Assembly: GCF_025362475.1 (NCBI RefSeq)
Contig: NZ_JANYGH010000024.1
Location: forward strand, 2,164 to 66,163
DNA from: Mucilaginibacter sp.
GTDB lineage: Bacteria; Bacteroidota; Bacteroidia; Sphingobacteriales; Sphingobacteriaceae
DNA length: 64,000 nucleotides
Direction of reading: 5' to 3'
Shown: one piece after another, positions 8,754 to 23,274 of the stretch
Layout of the letters: the number at the start of each line of letters is the position of its first letter
How positions within the stretch are numbered: the first letter of the stretch is position 1
Notes under the pieces: generated by a model
Database searches by the model: none
Seen by the model: the letters and a program-made list of their open reading frames with translations, nothing else
Told to the model about the DNA's origin: nothing
Program-made: the position numbers and the translations under genes

Positions 8754-8761
8754 TATATTTG
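8754..8761 (+). promoter_or_regulatory. Bacteroidetes -7 promoter element for SRP RNA
   Basis: TATATTTG (TAnnTTTG) 5 nt upstream of the RNA. Confidence 0.75.
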
Positions 8762-8766
8762 CGCCG

Positions 8767-8862
8767 GGGTAAGTCTTTTACGGCCAGCTCCTCTTGAACT
8801 CCCCCAGGGTGGGAACACAGCAAGGGTAGAGAGTTGAGCGGCGCGATAAAAGTAGCTTACCC
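8767..8862 (+). ncRNA. ffs: Small bacterial SRP RNA (4.5S)
   Basis: Long hairpin GGGTAAG...CTTACCC with helix-8 signature CAGG-GTG-GGAA-CAC-AGCA; T-run follows. Confidence 0.9.
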
Positions 8863-8951
8863 TTTTTTATTTTTCTATTTTTGCCAATTGGCAACAGGCT
8901 TAAAACCTTTCCACAGGTTTTGCATTCTATCAAAGTCTTAATATAAATTAA

Positions 8952-9914
8952 ATGCTCGATATACTCATCATAGGTGGTGGCCCTATAGGCTTAGCTTGCG
9001 GACTTGCAGCACAAAAAGAAGGTTTAAGTTTTGTTATTATTGAAAAAGGCTGCCTGGTCAACTCACTGTACAATTACCCTTCAACCATGACATTCTTCTC
9101 CACATCAGAAAAACTGGAGATTGGCGGAGTGCCATTTGTAACTGTACATAATAAACCAACCCGTAATGATGCACTTGAATATTATCGCAGGGTGGCCCTA
9201 TCAAACCACTTACCCCTTAATTTATTTGAAGAAGTTACCAATGTAAAAGCCGAAGACAGCGGTTATACCATCACCACCAGCAAAGCAACTTACCATGCAA
9301 AAAAAGTGATTGTATCAACCGGCTTTTATGATATCCCTGTTAAGCTCAACATTACAGGTGAAGACCTGCCCAAAGTGAAACATTATTACTACGATCCGCA
9401 TTATTACACATCGCAAAAAGTAGTGGTTGTGGGTTCAAGCAATTCAGCAATAGATGTGGCTTTAGAAACCTACCGCAAGGGTGCCGAAGTAACGCTTGTA
9501 GTGCGTGGCCCGGAGATCAGCAGCAGGGTTAAATACTGGGTAAGGCCAGATATCATTAACCGGATAAAGGAAGGTAGCATCAAAGCATACTTTCACTCCA
9601 ACCTGGAAGCGGTACGGGAGCACGAGGTGGATATAAATACACCCGATGGCCTGATCACCATTCCTAATGATTTTGTGATGGCCATGACAGGTTATAAACC
9701 CAATTTTGATTTCCTAAAAAAGTTGGGCATCATTTTATCCGAAGACAAGTGCATCCCACAATATAATCACCAAACTATGGAAACCAATTTACCGGGCCTA
9801 TACCTTGCCGGTGTAGTTTGTGGTGGAATGGATACTCATTTATGGTTTATTGAAAACTCGCGCATTCATGCGGATATGATCCTGAATGATATTGTGCAAA
9901 AAGTGAATAGTTGA
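8952..9914 (+). CDS. ypdA: YpdA-family putative bacillithiol disulfide reductase
   Basis: GGGPIG, EKGCLVNSLYNYP, FFSTSEKLEIG, WFIENSRIHA. Confidence 0.9.
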   Translation: MLDILIIGGGPIGLACGLAAQKEGLSFVIIEKGCLVNSLYNYPSTMTFFSTSEKLEIGGVPFVTVHNKPTRNDALEYYRRVALSNHLPLNLFEEVTNVKAEDSGYTITTSKATYHAKKVIVSTGFYDIPVKLNITGEDLPKVKHYYYDPHYYTSQKVVVVGSSNSAIDVALETYRKGAEVTLVVRGPEISSRVKYWVRPDIINRIKEGSIKAYFHSNLEAVREHEVDINTPDGLITIPNDFVMAMTGYKPNFDFLKKLGIILSEDKCIPQYNHQTMETNLPGLYLAGVVCGGMDTHLWFIENSRIHADMILNDIVQKVNS

Positions 9915-9989
9915 TTAAGTGAAGCTTATTTCAGTTGTTTGCAGTTGCATTTGCAGCATTAAAGAGTCTTCTTAAAATGCCGTAATTAA

Positions 9990-10023
9990 TCTTCAAACTT
10001 TCAAATTCTCAAACCTTCAAATT
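9990..10023 (+). repeat. Tandem octamer repeat (YYTTCAAA-like x4)
   Basis: TCTTCAAA CTTTCAAA TTCTCAAA CCTTCAAA; single arm. Confidence 0.5.
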
Positions 10024-10118
10024 AACTTCCATCAACTAAATCATTTTTTTCTTGTATAAGTAAAAATTTATGCGATAATTTGCACCCAAATTAAAAACAC
10101 AGTAATACAATCGAAAAA

Positions 10119-10244
10119 ATGAATCAACCAAGCTTAAATAAGCCCGCAATAAGAGCAACATTTGCTCCGGTTGCCGCTGCTTTGGGTTCAACTGTTTTTT
10201 TATGCTGCCCTCCCCGACGAAGGCCCTATATGCCACGGGTTTGA
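10119..10244 (+). CDS. Putative arginine-responsive leader peptide (41 aa)
   Basis: MNQPSLNKPAIRATFAPVAAALGSTVFLCCPPRRRPYMPRV; CGA CGA AGG run plus CGG, 115 nt before the arg operon; below ORF-track cutoff. Confidence 0.6.
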   Translation: MNQPSLNKPAIRATFAPVAAALGSTVFLCCPPRRRPYMPRV

Positions 10245-10359
10245 ATTAATTTCTCGCACTAAGCCCTCACAAAAGAGTTATTAAACTTCTTTTAAGAAAA
10301 GCCATCTAATTATTAAGGCCTTTAAAAGCCAATTAATTTAACGGTAATCATCTATTTAA

Positions 10360-11001
10360 ATGACCATACAAGATTTTGATATTCAGGTTGCTACAGCACA
10401 GCATGTAGATTTTGCCCCAATGATATGTGATGAAATGGCCGAATCGGCCAAAGCGCGCGGAACGGGTATTGCACAACGTTCACCAGAATATGTTGCCAAT
10501 AAAATGCTGGAAGGCAAAGCAGTTATTGCCTTACATAAAGACGGTACCTGGGCCGGTTTCTGTTATATAGAAACCTGGAGCCATGGCGACTTTGTGGCCA
10601 ATTCCGGTCTTATTGTAAACCCGCAGTTTCGTAAAGTAGGTTTGGCGAAAGCCATTAAACATGCCATTTTCCAGCTTTCACGCAAAAAATATCCCAACGC
10701 TAAAATATTTGGATTGACCACAGGTTTGGCGGTAATGCGTATCAACTCAGAAATTGGGTATGAACCTGTTACCTATTCTGAACTTACCCAGGATGAAAAT
10801 TTTTGGGCCGGCTGCAAAAGCTGCGTTAACTACGATATCCTGATGAGCAAAGATCGTAAGAATTGCATGTGCACCGCCATGCTGTTTGATCCCGCCGAAA
10901 AACAAAAACAGGACGAGGAGAAAATGAAAAGAATTACGCACAAAGCTACCTTGCTTGAGCGAATTGAAAATGCCATTAAAAAGCGGATGGGGCAAGATTA
11001 G
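10360..11001 (+). CDS. argA: GNAT-type N-acylglutamate synthase (short ArgA)
   Basis: ARGTGIAQRSPEY, GFCYIETW, FWAGCKSCVNYDIL, CMCTAML; first gene of the arg operon. Confidence 0.75.
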   Translation: MTIQDFDIQVATAQHVDFAPMICDEMAESAKARGTGIAQRSPEYVANKMLEGKAVIALHKDGTWAGFCYIETWSHGDFVANSGLIVNPQFRKVGLAKAIKHAIFQLSRKKYPNAKIFGLTTGLAVMRINSEIGYEPVTYSELTQDENFWAGCKSCVNYDILMSKDRKNCMCTAMLFDPAEKQKQDEEKMKRITHKATLLERIENAIKKRMGQD

Positions 11002-11102
11002 GTGAAAGGGCGATAAGCCAGGTTGATAAATAAACTAATAAAAAGCACATACAAATTGAAAACATAAAAAGCTTTAAGCCTTTCGCTTTTAGCTTTAAGC
11101 CC
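11001..11102. repeat. Heptamer-armed junction element (no cargo)
   Basis: Right arm GCTTTAA GCCTTTC GCTTTTA GCTTTAA GCC just before argG ATG; degenerate left arm GGTGAAAGGGCGATAAGC at the argA stop. Confidence 0.6.
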
Positions 11103-11109
11103 ACAAAAA

Positions 11110-12306
11110 ATGAAAAAGAAAGTAGTATTAGCATACAGCGGCGGATTAGACACCTCATTTTGCTGTATATATTTAACACAGGACCTTGGTTACGAAGTTC
11201 ACTCGGTAATTGTTAACACGGGCGGCTTTAGCGACGAAGAGTTAAAAGGGGTTGAAGAACGCGCTTACCAAATGGGCGTTACATCGCACCACGTAGTAGA
11301 TGAAACTACTAATTTTTACAATACCTGTGTTCGTTTTTTGATTTATGGCAATGTTTTAAAGAACAACACTTACCCACTTTCTGTAAGTGCCGAGCGTGTG
11401 AGCCAGGCAACCGCAATTGCCAACTACGCAAAAGAAATTGGTGCTGAATTTGTAGCACACGGCAGTACCGGCGCCGGTAACGACCAGGTGCGTTTTGATA
11501 TGATCTTTAATATCCTGGTTCCGGAAGTAAAGATCATCACCCCTATCCGCGACTTGAAATTAAGCCGCGAAGCGGAGATCCAATACCTGAAAGATCATGG
11601 TGTGGAGATGAACTTCGAAAAAGCAAAATACTCTATCAATAAAGGAATCTGGGGTACGTCAGTTGGTGGTAAAGAAACGCTTACTTCAAACTTAGGTTTA
11701 CCGGAAGAAGCATGGCCTACACAAGTTACCGAATCGGAAGTTAAAAACCTGGAATTGGTGTTTGAAAAAGGCGAGCTGGTTGGCATTGATAATGAAAAAT
11801 ATGATCATCCAACCAAGGCAATCCAGGCATTACAGGCTATTGCGCAGCCTTATGGTATTGGTCGTGATATTCATGTTGGCGATACTATTATAGGCATTAA
11901 AGGCAGGGTTGGTTTTGAGGCAGCCGCGCCGATGCTTATTATCAAAGCCCATCATACTTTAGAGAAACATGTGCTTACCAAATGGCAGCTTTCATGGAAA
12001 GACCAGCTATCTGCATTTTATGGCAACTGGTTGCATGAAGGTCAGTTTCATGACCCAATTATGCGCAACATAGAAGCATTCCTGAGCGATACTCAGCTAA
12101 ATGTAACTGGCAAAGTGTTTGTACAATTGCACCCTTATCGCTTTCAGGTAATCGGTATTGAGTCTACTCATGACCTGATGTCGAATAAATTTGGCAGCTA
12201 TGGCGAAATGAACAATTCATGGTCTGGTGAAGATGTTAAAGGTTTCTCTAAAATATTTGGCAACCAGGTGATGATCTATCACAAGGTTAATCAAGATGCG
12301 AAATGA
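11110..12306 (+). CDS. argG: Argininosuccinate synthase
   Basis: VLAYSGGLDTS, AHGSTGAGNDQVRF, KGRVGFEA. Confidence 0.97.
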   Translation: MKKKVVLAYSGGLDTSFCCIYLTQDLGYEVHSVIVNTGGFSDEELKGVEERAYQMGVTSHHVVDETTNFYNTCVRFLIYGNVLKNNTYPLSVSAERVSQATAIANYAKEIGAEFVAHGSTGAGNDQVRFDMIFNILVPEVKIITPIRDLKLSREAEIQYLKDHGVEMNFEKAKYSINKGIWGTSVGGKETLTSNLGLPEEAWPTQVTESEVKNLELVFEKGELVGIDNEKYDHPTKAIQALQAIAQPYGIGRDIHVGDTIIGIKGRVGFEAAAPMLIIKAHHTLEKHVLTKWQLSWKDQLSAFYGNWLHEGQFHDPIMRNIEAFLSDTQLNVTGKVFVQLHPYRFQVIGIESTHDLMSNKFGSYGEMNNSWSGEDVKGFSKIFGNQVMIYHKVNQDAK

Positions 12307-12656
12307 TAAACACCATCTTTTCAAAAGGCGAATGTTTAAAGCATTATAAATGGGGCGACGACTGCTACGGGTGGACATTTATTGATACCGAAGAGCTATC
12401 TGTAAAACAGGAGTTGATGCCGCCTGATACTGCCGAGCAATTGCACTACCATGAAAAGGCTAAGCAGGTATTTTTCATTTTAAAGGGACGAGCGACGCTC
12501 CATATCAACGGGGAAACAACCGTTTTAAAGCCAGAGCAAGGCATCGAAATATTACCGGGTCAAAAACACTTCATCAGTAATAACGACAGAAGTGACCTGG
12601 AATTTATTCTATATTCTTATCCATCAACAAATAATGACAGGATCAACATTAAATAA
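12303..12656 (+). CDS. Cupin-domain protein
   Basis: EQLHYHEKAKQVFFILKG ... GQKHFISN; overlaps argG stop (ATGA) and argC start. Confidence 0.85.
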   Translation: MINTIFSKGECLKHYKWGDDCYGWTFIDTEELSVKQELMPPDTAEQLHYHEKAKQVFFILKGRATLHINGETTVLKPEQGIEILPGQKHFISNNDRSDLEFILYSYPSTNNDRINIK

Positions 12657-13632
12657 AGTACGGGCAGGTATCATTGGCGGGGCAGGTTATACTGGTGGCG
12701 AAATGCTGCGCATTCTTATCAACCATCCCAATGTAGATATTGCTTTTATTCATAGTAACAGCAATGCAGGCAATTACGTTTACGAGGTACATACCGATCT
12801 TTTTGGTGATACCGACTTAAAATTCGCGGCTGAGTTTTTTACCGATGTTGATGTGCTTTTTCTTTGCGTTGGTCATGGTGATGCTAAAAAGTTTTTAGAA
12901 GCGAATGACATCCCCGATGCAGTTAAGATCATTGACTTAAGCCAGGACTTTAGGTTAAGTCAAAATTCAAAATTTAAAACTAAAAACTTTGTATATGGCT
13001 TGCCCGAATTAAATCGGGAGGCGATTAAAACAGCTGATAACATTGCCAATCCGGGTTGTTTTGCTACCTGCTTACAATTAGGATTGCTTCCTTTAGCATC
13101 TAAAGGATTGCTGAATAACGAAGTTCATATCACAGCAACAACGGGCTCAACTGGTGCCGGCCAAAGTTTGGCCGCTACCTCGCATTTTACATGGAGAAAC
13201 GATAACCTTTCTGTTTACAAGGCCTTTAGTCACCAGCATTTAAATGAGATTGGGCAGTCATTAAAACAATTACAACCTGATTTTGGTAAAGCGATTAATT
13301 TTATTCCATATCGGGGCGATTTTACCCGTGGAATCATAGCTTCCATGTATACAGAAAGTGATTTGAGCGAAGAAGAAGCTTTATCACTTTACCAGGGTTA
13401 TTACGACGGGCATCCATTTACACATGTTACTAACCGCAATATTGATTTAAAGCAAATTGTAAATACCAATAAATGCTTTATTCAAGTTAAAAAACACGAT
13501 AATAAAATATTTATTATCAGCATAATGGACAACTTACTTAAAGGCGCTTCGGGCCAGGCTGTACAGAACATGAATTTATTGTTCGGTTTGGACGAGCGCA
13601 CAGGACTACGACTTAAGGCGACCGCTTTTTAG
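12634..13632 (+). CDS. argC: N-acyl-gamma-glutamyl-phosphate reductase
   Basis: GGAGYTGGE, IANPGCFAT, DNLLKGASGQAVQNMN; start uncertain. Confidence 0.95.
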   Translation: MTGSTLNKVRAGIIGGAGYTGGEMLRILINHPNVDIAFIHSNSNAGNYVYEVHTDLFGDTDLKFAAEFFTDVDVLFLCVGHGDAKKFLEANDIPDAVKIIDLSQDFRLSQNSKFKTKNFVYGLPELNREAIKTADNIANPGCFATCLQLGLLPLASKGLLNNEVHITATTGSTGAGQSLAATSHFTWRNDNLSVYKAFSHQHLNEIGQSLKQLQPDFGKAINFIPYRGDFTRGIIASMYTESDLSEEEALSLYQGYYDGHPFTHVTNRNIDLKQIVNTNKCFIQVKKHDNKIFIISIMDNLLKGASGQAVQNMNLLFGLDERTGLRLKATAF

Positions 13633-13662
13633 CTAAAAGCCGAAGGCTGAAAGCAAAAAGCT
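13631..13662 (+). repeat. Left heptamer arm of four-helix-bundle cassette
   Basis: AGCTAAA AGCCGAA GGCTGAA AGCAAAA AGCT, starting in the argC stop codon. Confidence 0.75.
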
Positions 13663-13681
13663 GTTGCCCTGAAAAATAACT

Positions 13682-14038
13682 ATGAGGGATTACAAAAAGT
13701 ATGAAGTATGGAAAAAAGCACATGAACTTAATATGTTCATTTACCTAACAGTACTTCCAAAATTCCCTAAAAGTGAACAATATGATTTAATGAGTCAAAC
13801 AAAACGAGCTTCGTATTCAATTCCCTTAAATATAGTTGAAGGGTGCGGAAGAAATACAGAGCGTGATTTTGCTCATTTTTTAGATCAGTCGTTAGGTTCG
13901 GCACATGAACTTGAATATTGCTGTTTAATGTGCAAAGATCTCTCGTACATCACTGAAGATTTGTTTCAGCAAACAAATAAGTCAATAAACGAAGTTAAGG
14001 CAATGCTGATAGGCCTGATTAAAATACTTAGAAAATAA
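13682..14038 (+). CDS. Four helix bundle protein (23S rRNA IVS protein / TIGR02436-like)
   Basis: VWKKAHEL, FPKSEQYDLMSQTKRASYSIPLNIVEGCGR, GSAHELE. Confidence 0.92.
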   Translation: MRDYKKYEVWKKAHELNMFIYLTVLPKFPKSEQYDLMSQTKRASYSIPLNIVEGCGRNTERDFAHFLDQSLGSAHELEYCCLMCKDLSYITEDLFQQTNKSINEVKAMLIGLIKILRK

Positions 14039-14039
14039 A

Positions 14040-14071
14040 GCTTTATGCCTTTGGCCTTTAGCTTTCAGCTT
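14040..14071 (+). repeat. Right heptamer arm of four-helix-bundle cassette
   Basis: GCTTTAT GCCTTTG GCCTTTA GCTTTCA GCTT, complementary to the left arm, ending 7 nt before argD ATG. Confidence 0.75.
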
Positions 14072-14078
14072 AAATGAT

Positions 14079-15206
14079 ATGAAACTATTTGACGTATATC
14101 CAATCAATCCAATAAATATAGTAAGAGGGCTGGGCAGCCTTGTTTATGATGCCCAGGATAATGAATATCTTGATATGTATGGCGGTCATGCCGTTATATC
14201 TATCGGCCATACCCATCCTCATTATGTAAAACGACTGGAAGATCAATTACATCAATTAGGGTTTTATTCAAACTCCATTGAGATCCCTATTCAAAAAGAG
14301 CTGGCGCAGAAACTGGGTAAGGTATCCGGTAAAGAAGATTACCAGTTATTTTTATGTAACTCAGGTGCAGAAGCTAATGAGAATGCTTTAAAACTGGCGT
14401 CTTTTTACAACGGCAAAAAGAAAGTTATCGCGTTTACAAAAGCCTTCCATGGCCGTACATCGTTAGCTGTGGCCGTTACAGACAATCCCAAGATTGTTGC
14501 GCCCATCAACCAAACCGACAACGTAATCTTTTTACCATGGGCCGATGAAGCCGCTTTAGCGCAGGCTTTTGCCGATAACGAAATTTCGTCTGTAATTATC
14601 GAAGGTATCCAGGGCGTTGGTGGTATCCAGGTAGCCCCTGAAAGCTTCCTGCAAAAGATCCGTTCGCTTTGTGACGAATGTAATGCTGTTTTTATTGCCG
14701 ACTCTGTGCAATGCGGTTACGGGCGTACCGGTAAATTCTTTTCCCAGGATTTTGCAGGTATTGATGCTGATATTTACAGTATGGCAAAGGGAATGGGTAA
14801 TGGCTTTCCGGTTGGTGGTATCATTATTTCGCCAAAAATACAACCTGCTTATGGCATGTTGGGCACCACTTTTGGTGGCAACCATTTGGCTTGTGCAGCT
14901 GGTTTAGCGGTGCTTGAGGTAATGGAGCAGGATAACCTGATGCAAAATGCTGCAACCGTTGGCGAATACCTGATAAAAGAGCTTAAAAAGCTGGAACAAG
15001 TTAAGGAAGTTAGGGGTCGTGGTTTGATGATAGGTATTGAATTGCCGGAAGAATTGGCGCATGCACGTAAAGAACTCTTATTTAAACATCATATTTTTAC
15101 CGGTGAGGCCAAGCCAAATGTGGTAAGATTACTGCCGGCACTTAACCTGACTAAAGCACATGCCGATAGGTTCCTGGAAGCATTTGTAAATGTTTTAAAT
15201 CAATAA
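14079..15206 (+). CDS. argD: Acetyl/succinylornithine aminotransferase
   Basis: NSGAEANENALK, AFHGRT, DSVQCGYGRTG, SMAKGMGNGFP, GTTFGGN. Confidence 0.93.
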   Translation: MKLFDVYPINPINIVRGLGSLVYDAQDNEYLDMYGGHAVISIGHTHPHYVKRLEDQLHQLGFYSNSIEIPIQKELAQKLGKVSGKEDYQLFLCNSGAEANENALKLASFYNGKKKVIAFTKAFHGRTSLAVAVTDNPKIVAPINQTDNVIFLPWADEAALAQAFADNEISSVIIEGIQGVGGIQVAPESFLQKIRSLCDECNAVFIADSVQCGYGRTGKFFSQDFAGIDADIYSMAKGMGNGFPVGGIIISPKIQPAYGMLGTTFGGNHLACAAGLAVLEVMEQDNLMQNAATVGEYLIKELKKLEQVKEVRGRGLMIGIELPEELAHARKELLFKHHIFTGEAKPNVVRLLPALNLTKAHADRFLEAFVNVLNQ

Positions 15207-15284
15207 GCTCTTTCTAAATCATCCCCTGTTGGCGGCGACTTTTAAATAAATATTAATTTGCTAAATCATTATTAAATAAGGCTC

Positions 15285-16232
15285 ATGAAATTATTTTCTT
15301 CTGTAAATGATGTTACTGATATCAACGCACTTGTAAAAGAGGCGTTGGCTCTTAAACAGAATCCTTATGCTCATCAGCAATTGGGTAAAAATAAAACACT
15401 GGCTTTAGTGTTTTTAAACCCAAGTTTGCGTACACGTATGAGTACTCAAAAAGCAGCGCTTAATTTGGGTATGAATGTGATGGTGCTTAATATAGATAAG
15501 GAAGGCTGGGCATTAGAGCTACGCGACGGCGTGATCATGGACGGATCAACAGTAGAGCATATCCGTGAAGCAGCCGGTGTTATGGGGCAGTATGCAGACA
15601 TTATAGGCGTGCGTTCATTCCCCGGCCTGCGCAACCGCGAGGAAGATTACAGCGAAATGATTTTTAATAAGTTTGTGGAGTTTTGCAAAGTGCCCGTGGT
15701 GAGCCTGGAATCGGCCACCCGCCACCCCTTGCAAAGCTTGGCAGATTTAGTCACCATAACAGAATTAAAAACTACTGAGCGCCCTAAGGTTGTATTAACC
15801 TGGGCGCCTCATATAAAACCATTGCCACAGGCTGTTCCTAATTCATTTGCTGAGTGGATGTGTAAAGCCGATGTTGATTTTACTATAGTTCAACCTAAAG
15901 GATATGAGCTTTGTGCCGATTTTACACAAGGTGCCAAAATAACCTATGATCAGGACGAAGCTTTAGCTGGCGCTGATTTTATCTATGTCAAAAACTGGTC
16001 GGCATATGAGCCTTACGGTAATATACTGGGTAAAAATGAAGAGTGGATGCTAACTACCGAAAAGCTGAAGGCAACCAATGATGCCAAAGTAATGCATTGC
16101 CTGCCTGTACGCCGTAACTTGGAGCTATCAGATGAAATATTAGATGGCCCAAATTCCATTGTTGTACATGAAGCCGGAAACCGCGTTTGGGCTGCACAAG
16201 CTGTGTTAAAGCAGATGTTGGAAAGTTTGTAA
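15285..16232 (+). CDS. argF: N-succinyl/N-acetylornithine carbamoyltransferase (ArgF')
   Basis: FLNPSLRTR, GSTVEHIREAAGVMGQYADIIGVRSF, HPLQSLAD, MHCLPVRRN. Confidence 0.92.
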   Translation: MKLFSSVNDVTDINALVKEALALKQNPYAHQQLGKNKTLALVFLNPSLRTRMSTQKAALNLGMNVMVLNIDKEGWALELRDGVIMDGSTVEHIREAAGVMGQYADIIGVRSFPGLRNREEDYSEMIFNKFVEFCKVPVVSLESATRHPLQSLADLVTITELKTTERPKVVLTWAPHIKPLPQAVPNSFAEWMCKADVDFTIVQPKGYELCADFTQGAKITYDQDEALAGADFIYVKNWSAYEPYGNILGKNEEWMLTTEKLKATNDAKVMHCLPVRRNLELSDEILDGPNSIVVHEAGNRVWAAQAVLKQMLESL

Positions 16233-21830: not shown

Positions 21831-21863
21831 CTATACCAATGCTATCGCATTGGTATAGTTTTT
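21831..21863 (+). terminator. Strong intrinsic terminator between proC and aspartokinase
   Basis: 12-bp perfect stem CTATACCAATGC/GCATTGGTATAG plus TTTTT. Confidence 0.8.
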
Positions 21864-21897: not shown

Positions 21898-23274
21898 ATG
21901 TTAACAGTAGAAAAAATCGGCGGCACATCAATGACCGCATTGGGCGATGTTATTAAAAACATCGTTCTGTTTGAACGCAGCGGGCAGCAATTGTACAACC
22001 GCATATTTGTAGTATCTGCATTTTCGGGAGTGACCAACCTCCTGTTGGAGAATAAGAAAACCGGTGCTCCGGGGGTTTATCACCGCCTGGCAACCTATAA
22101 GGATTTTCATAAGCCCTTAAATGCGCTTATTGTTAAGCTAAAACAGATCAATAAAAGTTATGAAAGCCTTGGCCTAAACATTGCCGAAGCCGATGCGTTT
22201 ATTGAGCAACGCCTTAAAGATGCACAAACCTATCTTGAAAATATAGCTAATATCCTGGCATCGGGTTATGTAAACAAGGATGATATTTTACTGGCGGCAC
22301 GGGAAATCCTGGCATCAATAGGCGAAAGTCATTCGGCTTTTAACTTTGCCAATATTTTGCAAAACATGGGCATCAATGCCACATTTGTGGATTTAAGCGG
22401 TTTTCATGACCACCGGTCTTTTACCATAGATCAACGGATCAAAAAAGACTTACAAAACATTAATTTTGAGGATACTATCTCCATCGTCACCGGTTACGCC
22501 AAGGGCACAGAAGGTATCATGCGCGAGTTTGACCGCGGCTACTCTGAGGTTACCTTTAGCAAAATCGCTGTAGCTGTAAAACCGCAGGAAGCCATCATCC
22601 ACAAAGAATATCATTTATGCACTGCCGATCCTAACCTGGTTGGTGTTGAAAACTGTTTTCCGGTAGGCAACACTAATTATGATGTAGCTGATCAATTAGC
22701 CGACGTAGGCATGGAAGCTATCCATCCAAAGGCGTCAAAGCCACTGGAGATTAATGATATAGACCTGCGTATCAAAAACACTTTCCAGCCAGAGCACCCC
22801 GGCACACTGATAACCCGCGAATACATTTGCGATAAAAAGCGTGTTGAGGTAATTACAGGTACCGAAAGAGTAATGATGATAGATATTTACGACCCATCAA
22901 TGGTGGGCAATGTAGGTACCGACTTTCATATCATGCAGCTGTTTTATAAATATGGCGTTAGCTACACCTTTAAGGCCACCAGTGCCAATAGTATCTCCAT
23001 TGTGATATGGGATAAGGACTATAACAAAAAACTGATACAGGAACTGGAAGATGATTACGAAAAGGTAACCGTTGAGAAGATGGCCATGGTTTGCCTAATA
23101 GGCTCCAACATGGATCAACCGGGCTTACTGGCCAAATCAGCAACAGCCTTGGCCAAGCATGGCATCAATATAAAAAGCTGTGGCTTTGCCCTGCGTAAAG
23201 TAAATATCCAATTCCTGGTAGCCCGTGAAGATTTTGCGGAGGCCATTAAAGCGTTAAATAAGGCGATGATATAA
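21898..23274 (+). CDS. Aspartate kinase, Ask_Ect-like subfamily
   Basis: TVEKIGGTSM, FVVSAFSGVTNLLLE, FDRGYSEVTFS, TNYDVADQLADVGMEAIHP; C-terminal ACT-like region. Confidence 0.9.
   Translation: MLTVEKIGGTSMTALGDVIKNIVLFERSGQQLYNRIFVVSAFSGVTNLLLENKKTGAPGVYHRLATYKDFHKPLNALIVKLKQINKSYESLGLNIAEADAFIEQRLKDAQTYLENIANILASGYVNKDDILLAAREILASIGESHSAFNFANILQNMGINATFVDLSGFHDHRSFTIDQRIKKDLQNINFEDTISIVTGYAKGTEGIMREFDRGYSEVTFSKIAVAVKPQEAIIHKEYHLCTADPNLVGVENCFPVGNTNYDVADQLADVGMEAIHPKASKPLEINDIDLRIKNTFQPEHPGTLITREYICDKKRVEVITGTERVMMIDIYDPSMVGNVGTDFHIMQLFYKYGVSYTFKATSANSISIVIWDKDYNKKLIQELEDDYEKVTVEKMAMVCLIGSNMDQPGLLAKSATALAKHGINIKSCGFALRKVNIQFLVAREDFAEAIKALNKAMI

Follow-up and report, generated by a model that had tools for sequence, protein, structure and literature searches.

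The leader attenuators described in enterobacteria include those of trpL, hisL, leuL, thrL, pheL and ilvL, whereas arginine is the textbook example of a pathway placed under a protein repressor, ArgR, and not under a leader peptide. A leader-like element for arginine is known from fungi, where the arginine attenuator peptide (AAP), encoded by a uORF of arg-2/CPA1, is eukaryotic and scanning-dependent, with free arginine stalling the ribosome at the stop codon and thereby repressing expression when arginine is high. In the speF leader of Salmonella, consecutive Arg codons in orf34 (SpeFL) report arginine availability, and the signal is passed on through alternative mRNA conformations and Rho-dependent termination, with no intrinsic terminator (PMC6386406; bioRxiv 10.1101/604074). 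SpeFL belongs to the gamma-proteobacteria, controls ornithine decarboxylase, and with it polyamine synthesis, and captures ornithine in the exit tunnel (PMC6386406; bioRxiv 10.1101/604074). In mycobacteria, polycysteine leaderless short ORFs serve as amino-acid-specific sensors before the matching biosynthetic genes (bioRxiv 10.1101/834739). For the Bacteroidota, flavobacterial and Bacteroides transcriptome papers contain general remarks on clues to leader peptides, and the Flavobacterium psychrophilum transcriptome paper notes such clues upstream of amino-acid operons, with arginine unmentioned in that passage of its main text. In full-text literature searches, no report came up of arginine biosynthesis being controlled by an arginine leader peptide.

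Here, we describe a short ORF that precedes an arginine operon in the window, by which we mean the whole 64,000-nucleotide stretch of Mucilaginibacter DNA that was analysed. It is likely, in our judgement and in the absence of experimental evidence, that this ORF is a translated regulatory leader gene for the operon, sensing arginine through a tandem pair of CGA codons, with a stalled ribosome leading to expression, in a family that lacks ArgR. The sensor part of this proposal is well supported; the route by which the signal reaches the operon is inferred and remains unresolved.

The leader ORF and its operon

The first-pass annotation had drawn attention to a 41-codon ORF containing the run CCT CCC CGA CGA AGG CCC and a further CGG near its end, and to its stop lying 115 nt before the next gene. 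Both statements agree with the sequence in coordinates and content (Table 1): the run makes up codons 31–36 (10209-10226), and the spacer between the leader stop and the first operon gene, which starts at 10360, is 115 nt.

Table 1. Features of the leader region and of the operon downstream, in window coordinates.
Feature	Position	Strand	Remarks
Promoter-like block, CTTGTATAAGTAAAAATTTATGCGATAATTTGCA	10051-10084	+	Conserved; putative, by resemblance
Leader ORF, 41 codons + TGA, peptide MNQPSLNKPAIRATFAPVAAALGSTVFLCCPPRRRPYMPRV	10119-10244	+	ATG at 10119, TGA stop at 10242-10244; unannotated; conserved in family and genus loci
Sensor codons CGA CGA AGG (Arg33-35)	10215-10223	+	CGA-CGA pair invariant
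Peptide tail P-Y-M-P-R-V, with fourth Arg codon CGG (10236-10238)	10224-10241	+	Conserved
Hairpin P1, GGGUUUG (last codons and UG of the stop) paired with UAAGCCC	10237-10243 with 10260-10266	+	Predicted, -6.5 kcal/mol
Hairpin A, AAAAGAGUU-AUUA-AACUUCUUUU, then U4	10271-10293	+	9 bp, one bulge; predicted, -4.4 kcal/mol
Hairpin B, irregular and AU-rich; base GCC/GGU, middle AAUUA/UAAUU, tip GGC/GCC	10301-10345	+	Tip alone predicted at -3.7 kcal/mol
Regulated operon, seven genes	10360-16232	+	NCBIfam and Pfam matches
GNAT-like acyltransferase, 213 aa	10360-11001	+	Pfam E = 0.003, below threshold
argG	11110-12306	+	NCBIfam/Pfam
Cupin gene	12303-12656	+	NCBIfam/Pfam
argC	12592-13632	+	NCBIfam/Pfam
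Four-helix-bundle gene (TIGR02436 family)	13682-14038	+	NCBIfam/Pfam
argD	14079-15206	+	NCBIfam/Pfam
argF', N-acetylornithine carbamoyltransferase-like	15285-16232	+	NCBIfam/Pfam

The name argA, which had been given to the gene after the spacer, survives only in part: the product is weakly GNAT-like on a sub-threshold Pfam match (E = 0.003), and the name itself is an inference from operon context. This gene has no NCBIfam hits at all, yet it is conserved at arg loci across the phylum, and a paralogue of 53% identity lies elsewhere in the genome (contig C1:34643-35152). The cupin and four-helix-bundle genes are inserted among the arg genes of the operon. On the other side of the leader, the gene for a YpdA-like reductase ends at 9914, and a Bacteroidales small SRP RNA (Rfam RF04183, 97.6 bits; 8760-8866, plus strand) lies just upstream of it. 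The leader is also overlapped by a TTG-started ORF of 40 codons in the +1 frame (10162-10284, plus strand), which ends with UAA (10282-10284) in the loop of hairpin A; a ribosome slipping by +1 at CGA-CGA would find itself in this frame.

Within the 6.45-Mb genome, CGACGA placed 3–7 codons before a stop occurs in just 28 small ORFs, the conserved tail is present in the leader ORF alone, and no second copy of the leader was found. On such sequence grounds, the leader is more than a chance ORF. Four exact leader peptides gave zero matches in a collection of 15 billion predicted proteins, and it follows that the ORF has been overlooked by gene callers. A search against Rfam returned nothing at gathering threshold for the leader in the window, with only chance-level matches (E <= 10) in 9000-12000.

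Conservation and coding signature

Of a family sample of 121 genomes searched with the GNAT protein, 93 were positive, and an equivalent upstream ORF occupies the same place before the operon in 87 of 89 family loci. An upstream ORF with an Arg-rich tail was present at all 29 loci fetched first, once minus-strand loci had been corrected for orientation, and at 58 of 60 further ones. These ORFs span ~40–48 codons, with a few reading longer or shorter, and end ~100–150 nt before the GNAT start. It had been proposed in the first-pass annotation that arg-operon leaders be aligned across the Sphingobacteriaceae for a conserved frame and RRR; the frame and the Arg codons are indeed retained in the family, in no fewer than 27 of its genera. 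Within the same genus, the leader ORF was recovered at 33 of the 34 loci scanned (27 of 28 new loci, and six earlier ones); at the sole failure of the ORF scan, locus L178, the leader RNA model still matches.

In 25 distinct 41-codon ORFs from the genus, site entropy at codon positions 1, 2 and 3 is 0.48, 0.57 and 0.79, respectively. Pro31 and Pro39 are invariant in the genus and each is written with all four Pro codons (counts of 12/7/4/2 at Pro39), while Arg40 is encoded by CGG or AGG in the genus, and by CGG, AGG, AGA or CGA across the family. Changes in the middle segment, F-A-P-V-A-A-A-L-V-S, are mostly synonymous in the genus. Judged by this coding periodicity and amino-acid-level conservation, the leader ORF itself is under selection.

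The tail of the peptide follows the family consensus [LF]-R-x-R-R-P-[FI]-[ML]-P-R-[VA]-stop, and the Arg run keeps a fixed distance to the stop from genus to genus. Pro31, the aromatic position 37, Pro39 and Arg40, which belong to the part of the peptide near the proposed stall site, are conserved with synonymous variation. The Pro-Pro of CCPPRRRP, to which a role in stalling had been attributed, is not conserved as such; what is retained is a Pro two codons before the Arg run, together with a Pro three codons before the stop. Within the genus, codons 36 (10224-10226) and 38 (10230-10232) are perfectly associated, Pro or Thr at position 36 going with Met38, and Val or Leu with Ile38. RNAalifold reads part of this association as a 3-bp mini-hairpin (GGC/GCC versus GGG/CCC), and whether the peptide or the RNA is the cause is undetermined.

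Absence of ArgR and distribution in the phylum

The ArgR C-terminal domain (PF02863) had no matches in the window's genome and was found in none of the 121 family genomes, whereas control genomes, including Bacteroides thetaiotaomicron, were positive. Ribosome-based sensing of arginine had been called unusual against a background of ArgR repression; this now has to be refined, since there is no ArgR here and the leader therefore does not act on top of it. In a family without the arginine repressor, the ribosome itself probably senses arginine shortage, and the absence of ArgR makes the leader the likely main arginine control.

In a sample of the phylum, ArgR was detected in 164 of 401 genomes, and 60 GNAT loci were fetched from 27 other families. 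All five ArgR-positive loci among these carry argR directly upstream of the GNAT gene, and the leader is absent from them. A strict criterion, which required an ATG-started ORF of 10–80 codons with at least three Arg in its last 12 codons and a stop 55–175 nt upstream, was passed by 23 of the 55 ArgR-negative loci, representing at least nine families, whereas control positions yielded 0.014 hits per locus under the same criterion; several further leaders emerge when the scan is relaxed. The tails in other families are very different, and the Arg codons are the sole common feature.

At loci L073–L076 (family f31) and L031 (family f2), the Arg codons are found at the extreme end of the leader (RIPRRR-stop and VRR-stop). 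In the predicted fold of L074, from f31, these codons pair with a distal C-rich arm ahead of a U-rich stretch, and in that of L031 they pair with a distal UUCGUUCAC-like segment. As far as such folds can be trusted, the leaders of f31 and f2 represent a different expression platform attached to the same kind of sensor.

Sensor codons and their tRNA

CGA is used at both central Arg positions in all 25 genus sequences, the third Arg being AGG, CGG or CGA, and the central pair is CGA CGA nearly throughout the family, with CGA CGG occurring rarely. This is the rarest Arg codon of the genome (4.4% of Arg codons, 1.65 per 1000 codons), in which CGT and CGC together account for 52% of Arg codons. As the CGA-CGA pair stays unchanged next to synonymous sites that are saturated, selection acts on the codon, and not merely on the residue.

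Under the established decoding rules, A34 is converted to inosine, and the resulting ICG anticodon reads CGU, CGC and CGA, the last through a weak I:A wobble. The draft assembly is without a gene for tRNA-Arg(ACG); a complete genome of the same genus (G530) contains exactly one each of tRNA-Arg ACG, CCG, CCT and TCT, and none with TCG. From these rules, and from the lack of tRNA-Arg(TCG) in the complete relative, it can be deduced that CGA is readable only by tRNA-Arg(ACG = ICG), the major isoacceptor, by means of the weak I:A wobble. It is plausible, although an inference, that the tandem CGA reports the charging of tRNA-Arg(ICG) with high gain.

In the course of translating the leader, a ribosome would have to decode two consecutive CGA codons and then one or two more Arg codons. 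Were arginine scarce, the charged pool of tRNA-Arg(ICG), a tRNA shared with CGU and CGC, about half of all Arg codons, would drop and the ribosome would stall at CGA-CGA. It would then sit just upstream of hairpin P1, whose span includes the final codons and, for the majority of genera, the stop codon too. Were arginine plentiful, the ribosome would traverse P1 to the stop and then leave. Ribosome position would in this way set operon expression, with the stall inferred to be the state that leads to expression. The first-pass proposal of a translated, Arg-sensing leader peptide is thus supported in its sensor part by the conserved frame and Arg codons, the coding periodicity, and the selection on CGA-CGA, translation itself being unobserved.

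The amino-acid conservation of the tail makes a nascent-peptide component possible. Carried further, this would make the leader a metabolite-sensing arrest peptide comparable to TnaC, SpeFL or the AAP: free arginine, or an intermediate of the pathway, would act jointly with the nascent chain (P-x-R-R-R-x-[YF]-[MI]-P-R-[VA]) to stall the ribosome at or near the stop and set expression from there. Such an arrest would account for a tail that keeps its amino acids while its Pro codons change freely among synonyms, for the fixed distance from the Arg run to a stop that is embedded in P1, and for the conserved Pro, aromatic and Met/Ile positions, which a hungry-codon sensor alone leaves unexplained. 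However, the strict invariance of the CGA codon, and not just of the Arg residue, points to tRNA-level sensing and against the codon independence expected of an arrest peptide; from the stop, a ligand-induced stall would need to act across 115 nt to repress the gene, and folding found no structural route for this; and the tails of other families have little beyond the Arg codons in common with this one. Overall, we consider an arrest peptide improbable, though it is not to be set aside lightly.

It is also conceivable that the product of the ORF is a functional small protein, perhaps a membrane peptide in view of the hydrophobic segment FAPVAAALVSTVFL, which is co-transcribed with the arg operon and is not a regulator. 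The amino-acid conservation of the middle segment in this genus and a sister genus would fit such a protein, and is, like that of the tail, of no use to a pure hungry-codon mechanism, but in most other genera the segment is neither conserved nor even hydrophobic, unlike the Arg-codon tail. Moreover, the element goes with arg operons and is missing from loci that have ArgR, and the invariance of the CGA codon would be left unexplained, making this possibility very unlikely.

The region upstream of the leader

The block at 10051-10084, which we take to be a promoter from its resemblance to the Bacteroidetes -33/-7 consensus, combines a -33-like TTG (10052-10054), an imperfect palindrome and a -7-like TAATTTG (10076-10082). 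It is nearly invariant in 27 same-genus sequences, and in relatives the palindrome takes the form TGCAT-N12-ATGCA, positioned between the -33-like and -7-like elements. A position weight matrix of the block finds one site in the whole genome, and with the palindrome unique in this sense no regulon is visible for it. The palindrome may be the operator of an unknown regulator, forming a second control layer beside the leader.

Such a regulator could also be imagined as the whole explanation, with an unknown arginine-responsive factor acting at the palindrome as a promoter operator, or a protein or RNA binding the leader RNA at its hairpins, and with the ORF merely incidental. The strong conservation of the promoter block and palindrome, and the covariation of the hairpins described below, are what this would predict; on the other hand, coding periodicity and amino-acid conservation mark the ORF as selected, and a palindrome that is unique in the genome has no visible regulon. 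There is very little to recommend this as a replacement for the leader, although a factor of this kind could still act alongside it.

RNA structures downstream of the Arg codons

Across the family, hairpin P1 is formed by the last three or four codons pairing with the sequence right after the stop, which places the stop codon in the loop. Compensatory changes are many (CUGCCUCG/CGAGGCAG, AUGCCCC/GGGGCAU and ACCGCGAGU/ACUCACGGU, for example), and within the genus double changes are seen at two of the six pairs. Hairpin A corresponds to the weak AT-rich stem to which the first-pass annotation had pointed. It exists and covaries, with compensatory changes at eight of nine pairs in the genus, and its weakness is evident from a predicted -4.4 kcal/mol, as against -17.7 kcal/mol for a canonical terminator in the same window. 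The U-run that follows it is restricted to the window's subclade (11 sequences). Hairpin B ends 14 nt before the start codon; its tip pairs covary at three of three positions, and the C-G pairs at its base are conserved. In 16 other sequences of the genus and sister genus, hairpin B is followed by U4–U6, which is not the case in the window.

Of 33 distinct leaders, 11 have a run of at least four U after hairpin A and 16 have one after hairpin B; no leader has both, and six have neither. This pattern hints that one terminator-like element may be needed, but it is essentially a matter of one clade versus the rest, and so amounts to a single evolutionary event.

A covariance model of the P1/A/B structure was fitted to 35 leaders from the genus and sister genus. 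In this model, 81.6% of cells are paired, compared with 75.6 ± 0.6 in shuffles (none of 500 shuffles reaching the observed value), 16 pairs show double changes, and the covariation score is 0.207, against no more than 0.098 in slid controls. Fitting the alignment to the model biases it towards the structure; even so, the slid controls speak for a genuine signal. RNAalifold applied to MAFFT alignments gave almost no consensus because the hairpins were misaligned, and the covariance-model alignment was therefore required.

Elsewhere in the window, a strong canonical hairpin (21831-21858, plus strand; 12 bp, -17.7 kcal/mol, z = -6, then U5) lies between an argB-like/proC pair and an aspartokinase-like gene with ACT domains, which starts at 21898. 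It either terminates transcription of the genes before it or belongs to an attenuator of the kinase gene.

Least credible of the alternatives is a hungry-codon +1 frameshift at CGA-CGA, through which ribosomes would pass the 0-frame stop and run into hairpin A, melting the weak terminator: in 12 of 12 window-subclade sequences the +1 frame does stay open for 37–76 nt past the stop, reaching or crossing hairpin A, but those 12 are close relatives, the U-tract hairpin is reached by only ~8 of the 19 +1 frames from elsewhere in the genus, and the +1 and -1 frames have no common end point in the family, their stops being scattered.

How the signal could reach the operon

Returning to the stalled-ribosome reading, a consensus terminator scan of 9800-10360 found none, and both hairpin A and the tip of hairpin B (-3.7 kcal/mol) are far weaker than the canonical terminator at 21831-21858. 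Constrained folding found no antiterminator, and candidates for long-range pairing in the genus are without co-evolution. The first-pass annotation had left the choice open among intrinsic attenuation, Rho and translational control, and the doubt that it had cast on an intrinsic terminator was justified, given the weakness of hairpin A and the failure to find an antiterminator.

Several more specific arrangements were considered and rejected. A classical switch was not supported, as masking a ribosome at CGA-CGA or at the stop, or leaving it out, left the downstream hairpins and the accessibility of the start codon unchanged (12 representatives by MFE, and 100 sequences by partition function). 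Pairing of the stop-codon region with the region 20–40 nt before the start, evaluated in the genus, gave -7.94 kcal/mol for cognate and -7.89 kcal/mol for non-cognate combinations. Pairing of the Arg-codon box with a distal segment was not found in this genus, bar a palindrome-driven match in the window alone, and a T-box-like reading of CGU in a hairpin loop of some genera proved on inspection not to be conserved across genera. By the geometry of the ribosomal footprint, a ribosome whose A site is occupied by CGA would extend no further than the foot of P1.

In one group of other genera of the family, the Arg-codon box CGACGACCY has a complement, RGGUCGU, located between -18 and -6 relative to the start of the first gene (loci L028, L096, L097, L100-L103, L115, L123, L127, L130, L137 and L138). 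There is one compensatory difference, CCU/AGG versus CCC/GGG, and an 'ILPRA'-group form, CGACGACCC:GGGUCGU. This complementarity suggests that, in these genera, the stalled ribosome might bring about an erm-like translational unmasking.

The RNA downstream of the leader had been characterised as C-rich and G-poor. This is correct to the extent that C exceeds G in the spacer (18.3% versus 9.6%), but the spacer stands merely at the 84th percentile of the genome's upstream regions. The family means are 19.4% C and 13.4% G, and in the first 45 nt after the stop they are 25% and 15.5%. A C-over-G spacer is compatible with Rho loading, without being diagnostic of it, and a simple Rho model predicts regulation in the wrong direction, except where the loading site is hidden by P1.

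With structures and pairings varying among genera and families, the sensor seems to be conserved while the expression platforms differ. For the leader in the window, premature termination at a weak, non-canonical terminator (hairpin A with its U4, in this subclade) is a possible route, though a doubtful one, and Rho-dependent termination on the C-over-G, weakly structured 115-nt spacer, for which Rho dependence is itself inferred, is no more and no less likely. A stalled ribosome that controls the start of translation, or the stability of the mRNA, ranks slightly behind these two, and the remaining probability, no smaller than the share of either, is left to something else. As a more general but still tentative proposal, which we would not yet call probable, ArgR-less Bacteroidota may possess a ribosome-based sensor that reads tRNA-Arg(ICG) charging through tandem I:A-wobble CGA codons, with the signal in Sphingobacteriaceae being relayed without a classical terminator/antiterminator pair. 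Such a non-classical output might be one in which the stalled ribosome unmasks the region around the first gene's start, as the CGACGACCY:RGGUCGU pairing of several genera would allow, governs the access of Rho, or protects the mRNA.

Significance and comparison with known systems

These observations suggest that the ribosome serves as the arginine sensor throughout the family and, it seems, in many other Bacteroidota without ArgR, which would fill a gap among the known attenuators. The strict CGA-CGA pair, if read only by an inosine tRNA, would provide a clean and testable case of codon-specific, wobble-based sensing. With no recognisable terminator or antiterminator, the locus also offers an entry point to the coupling of leader translation to expression in bacteria that do not use Shine-Dalgarno sequences, and an output logic lacking this pair, if true, has not yet been described for amino-acid leader peptides. 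From a practical point of view, the leader ORF is missed by gene callers and the leader RNA is absent from Rfam. Our verdict, for which experimental evidence is still lacking, is that the element represents a real arginine-specific variant of leader-peptide control.

Like the enterobacterial attenuators, the leader is a short ORF just upstream of a biosynthetic operon, with its cognate codons clustered near the ORF end. Its last codons and stop are held in a covarying hairpin, in the manner of the trpL 1:2 structure, and its use of a rare codon as the sensor recalls the CUA of leuL. It departs from these attenuators in its amino acid, arginine, in the greater length of its ORF (41 codons), and in having only 2–4 sensor codons; in addition, the GC-rich terminator and mutually exclusive antiterminator that they possess have not been identified here.

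The leader resembles the fungal AAP in being a uORF that precedes a gene of arginine biosynthesis, in the conservation of its peptide sequence and in the importance of the context of its stop codon; the AAP, however, is without a run of Arg codons, and there is no sequence similarity between the two. A parallel may be found in TnaC of the tna operon and in the Pro-codon leaders mgtL and mgtP, to which the arg leader can be likened: there, a ribosome stalled within the leader ORF or at its end governs how Rho gains access to, or how the RNA folds in, the long spacer of weak structure that precedes the first gene. TnaC differs in sensing free tryptophan via its nascent chain and in inducing a catabolic operon (PMC8429421, PMC8450073), and for the arg leader neither a rut site nor Rho dependence has been demonstrated.

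SpeFL and the Bacteroidota leader have Arg codons in common, but the latter is directed at arginine biosynthesis, and no sequence similarity connects them. The mycobacterial polycysteine ORFs, recognised only recently, are likewise sensors outside the classical set, with a different amino acid, a different phylum and a leaderless transcript. Against all of these, the arginine leader senses by a classical principle, but departs from the classical pattern in its amino acid, in the wobble-specific choice of codon, in standing in for ArgR and in its output.
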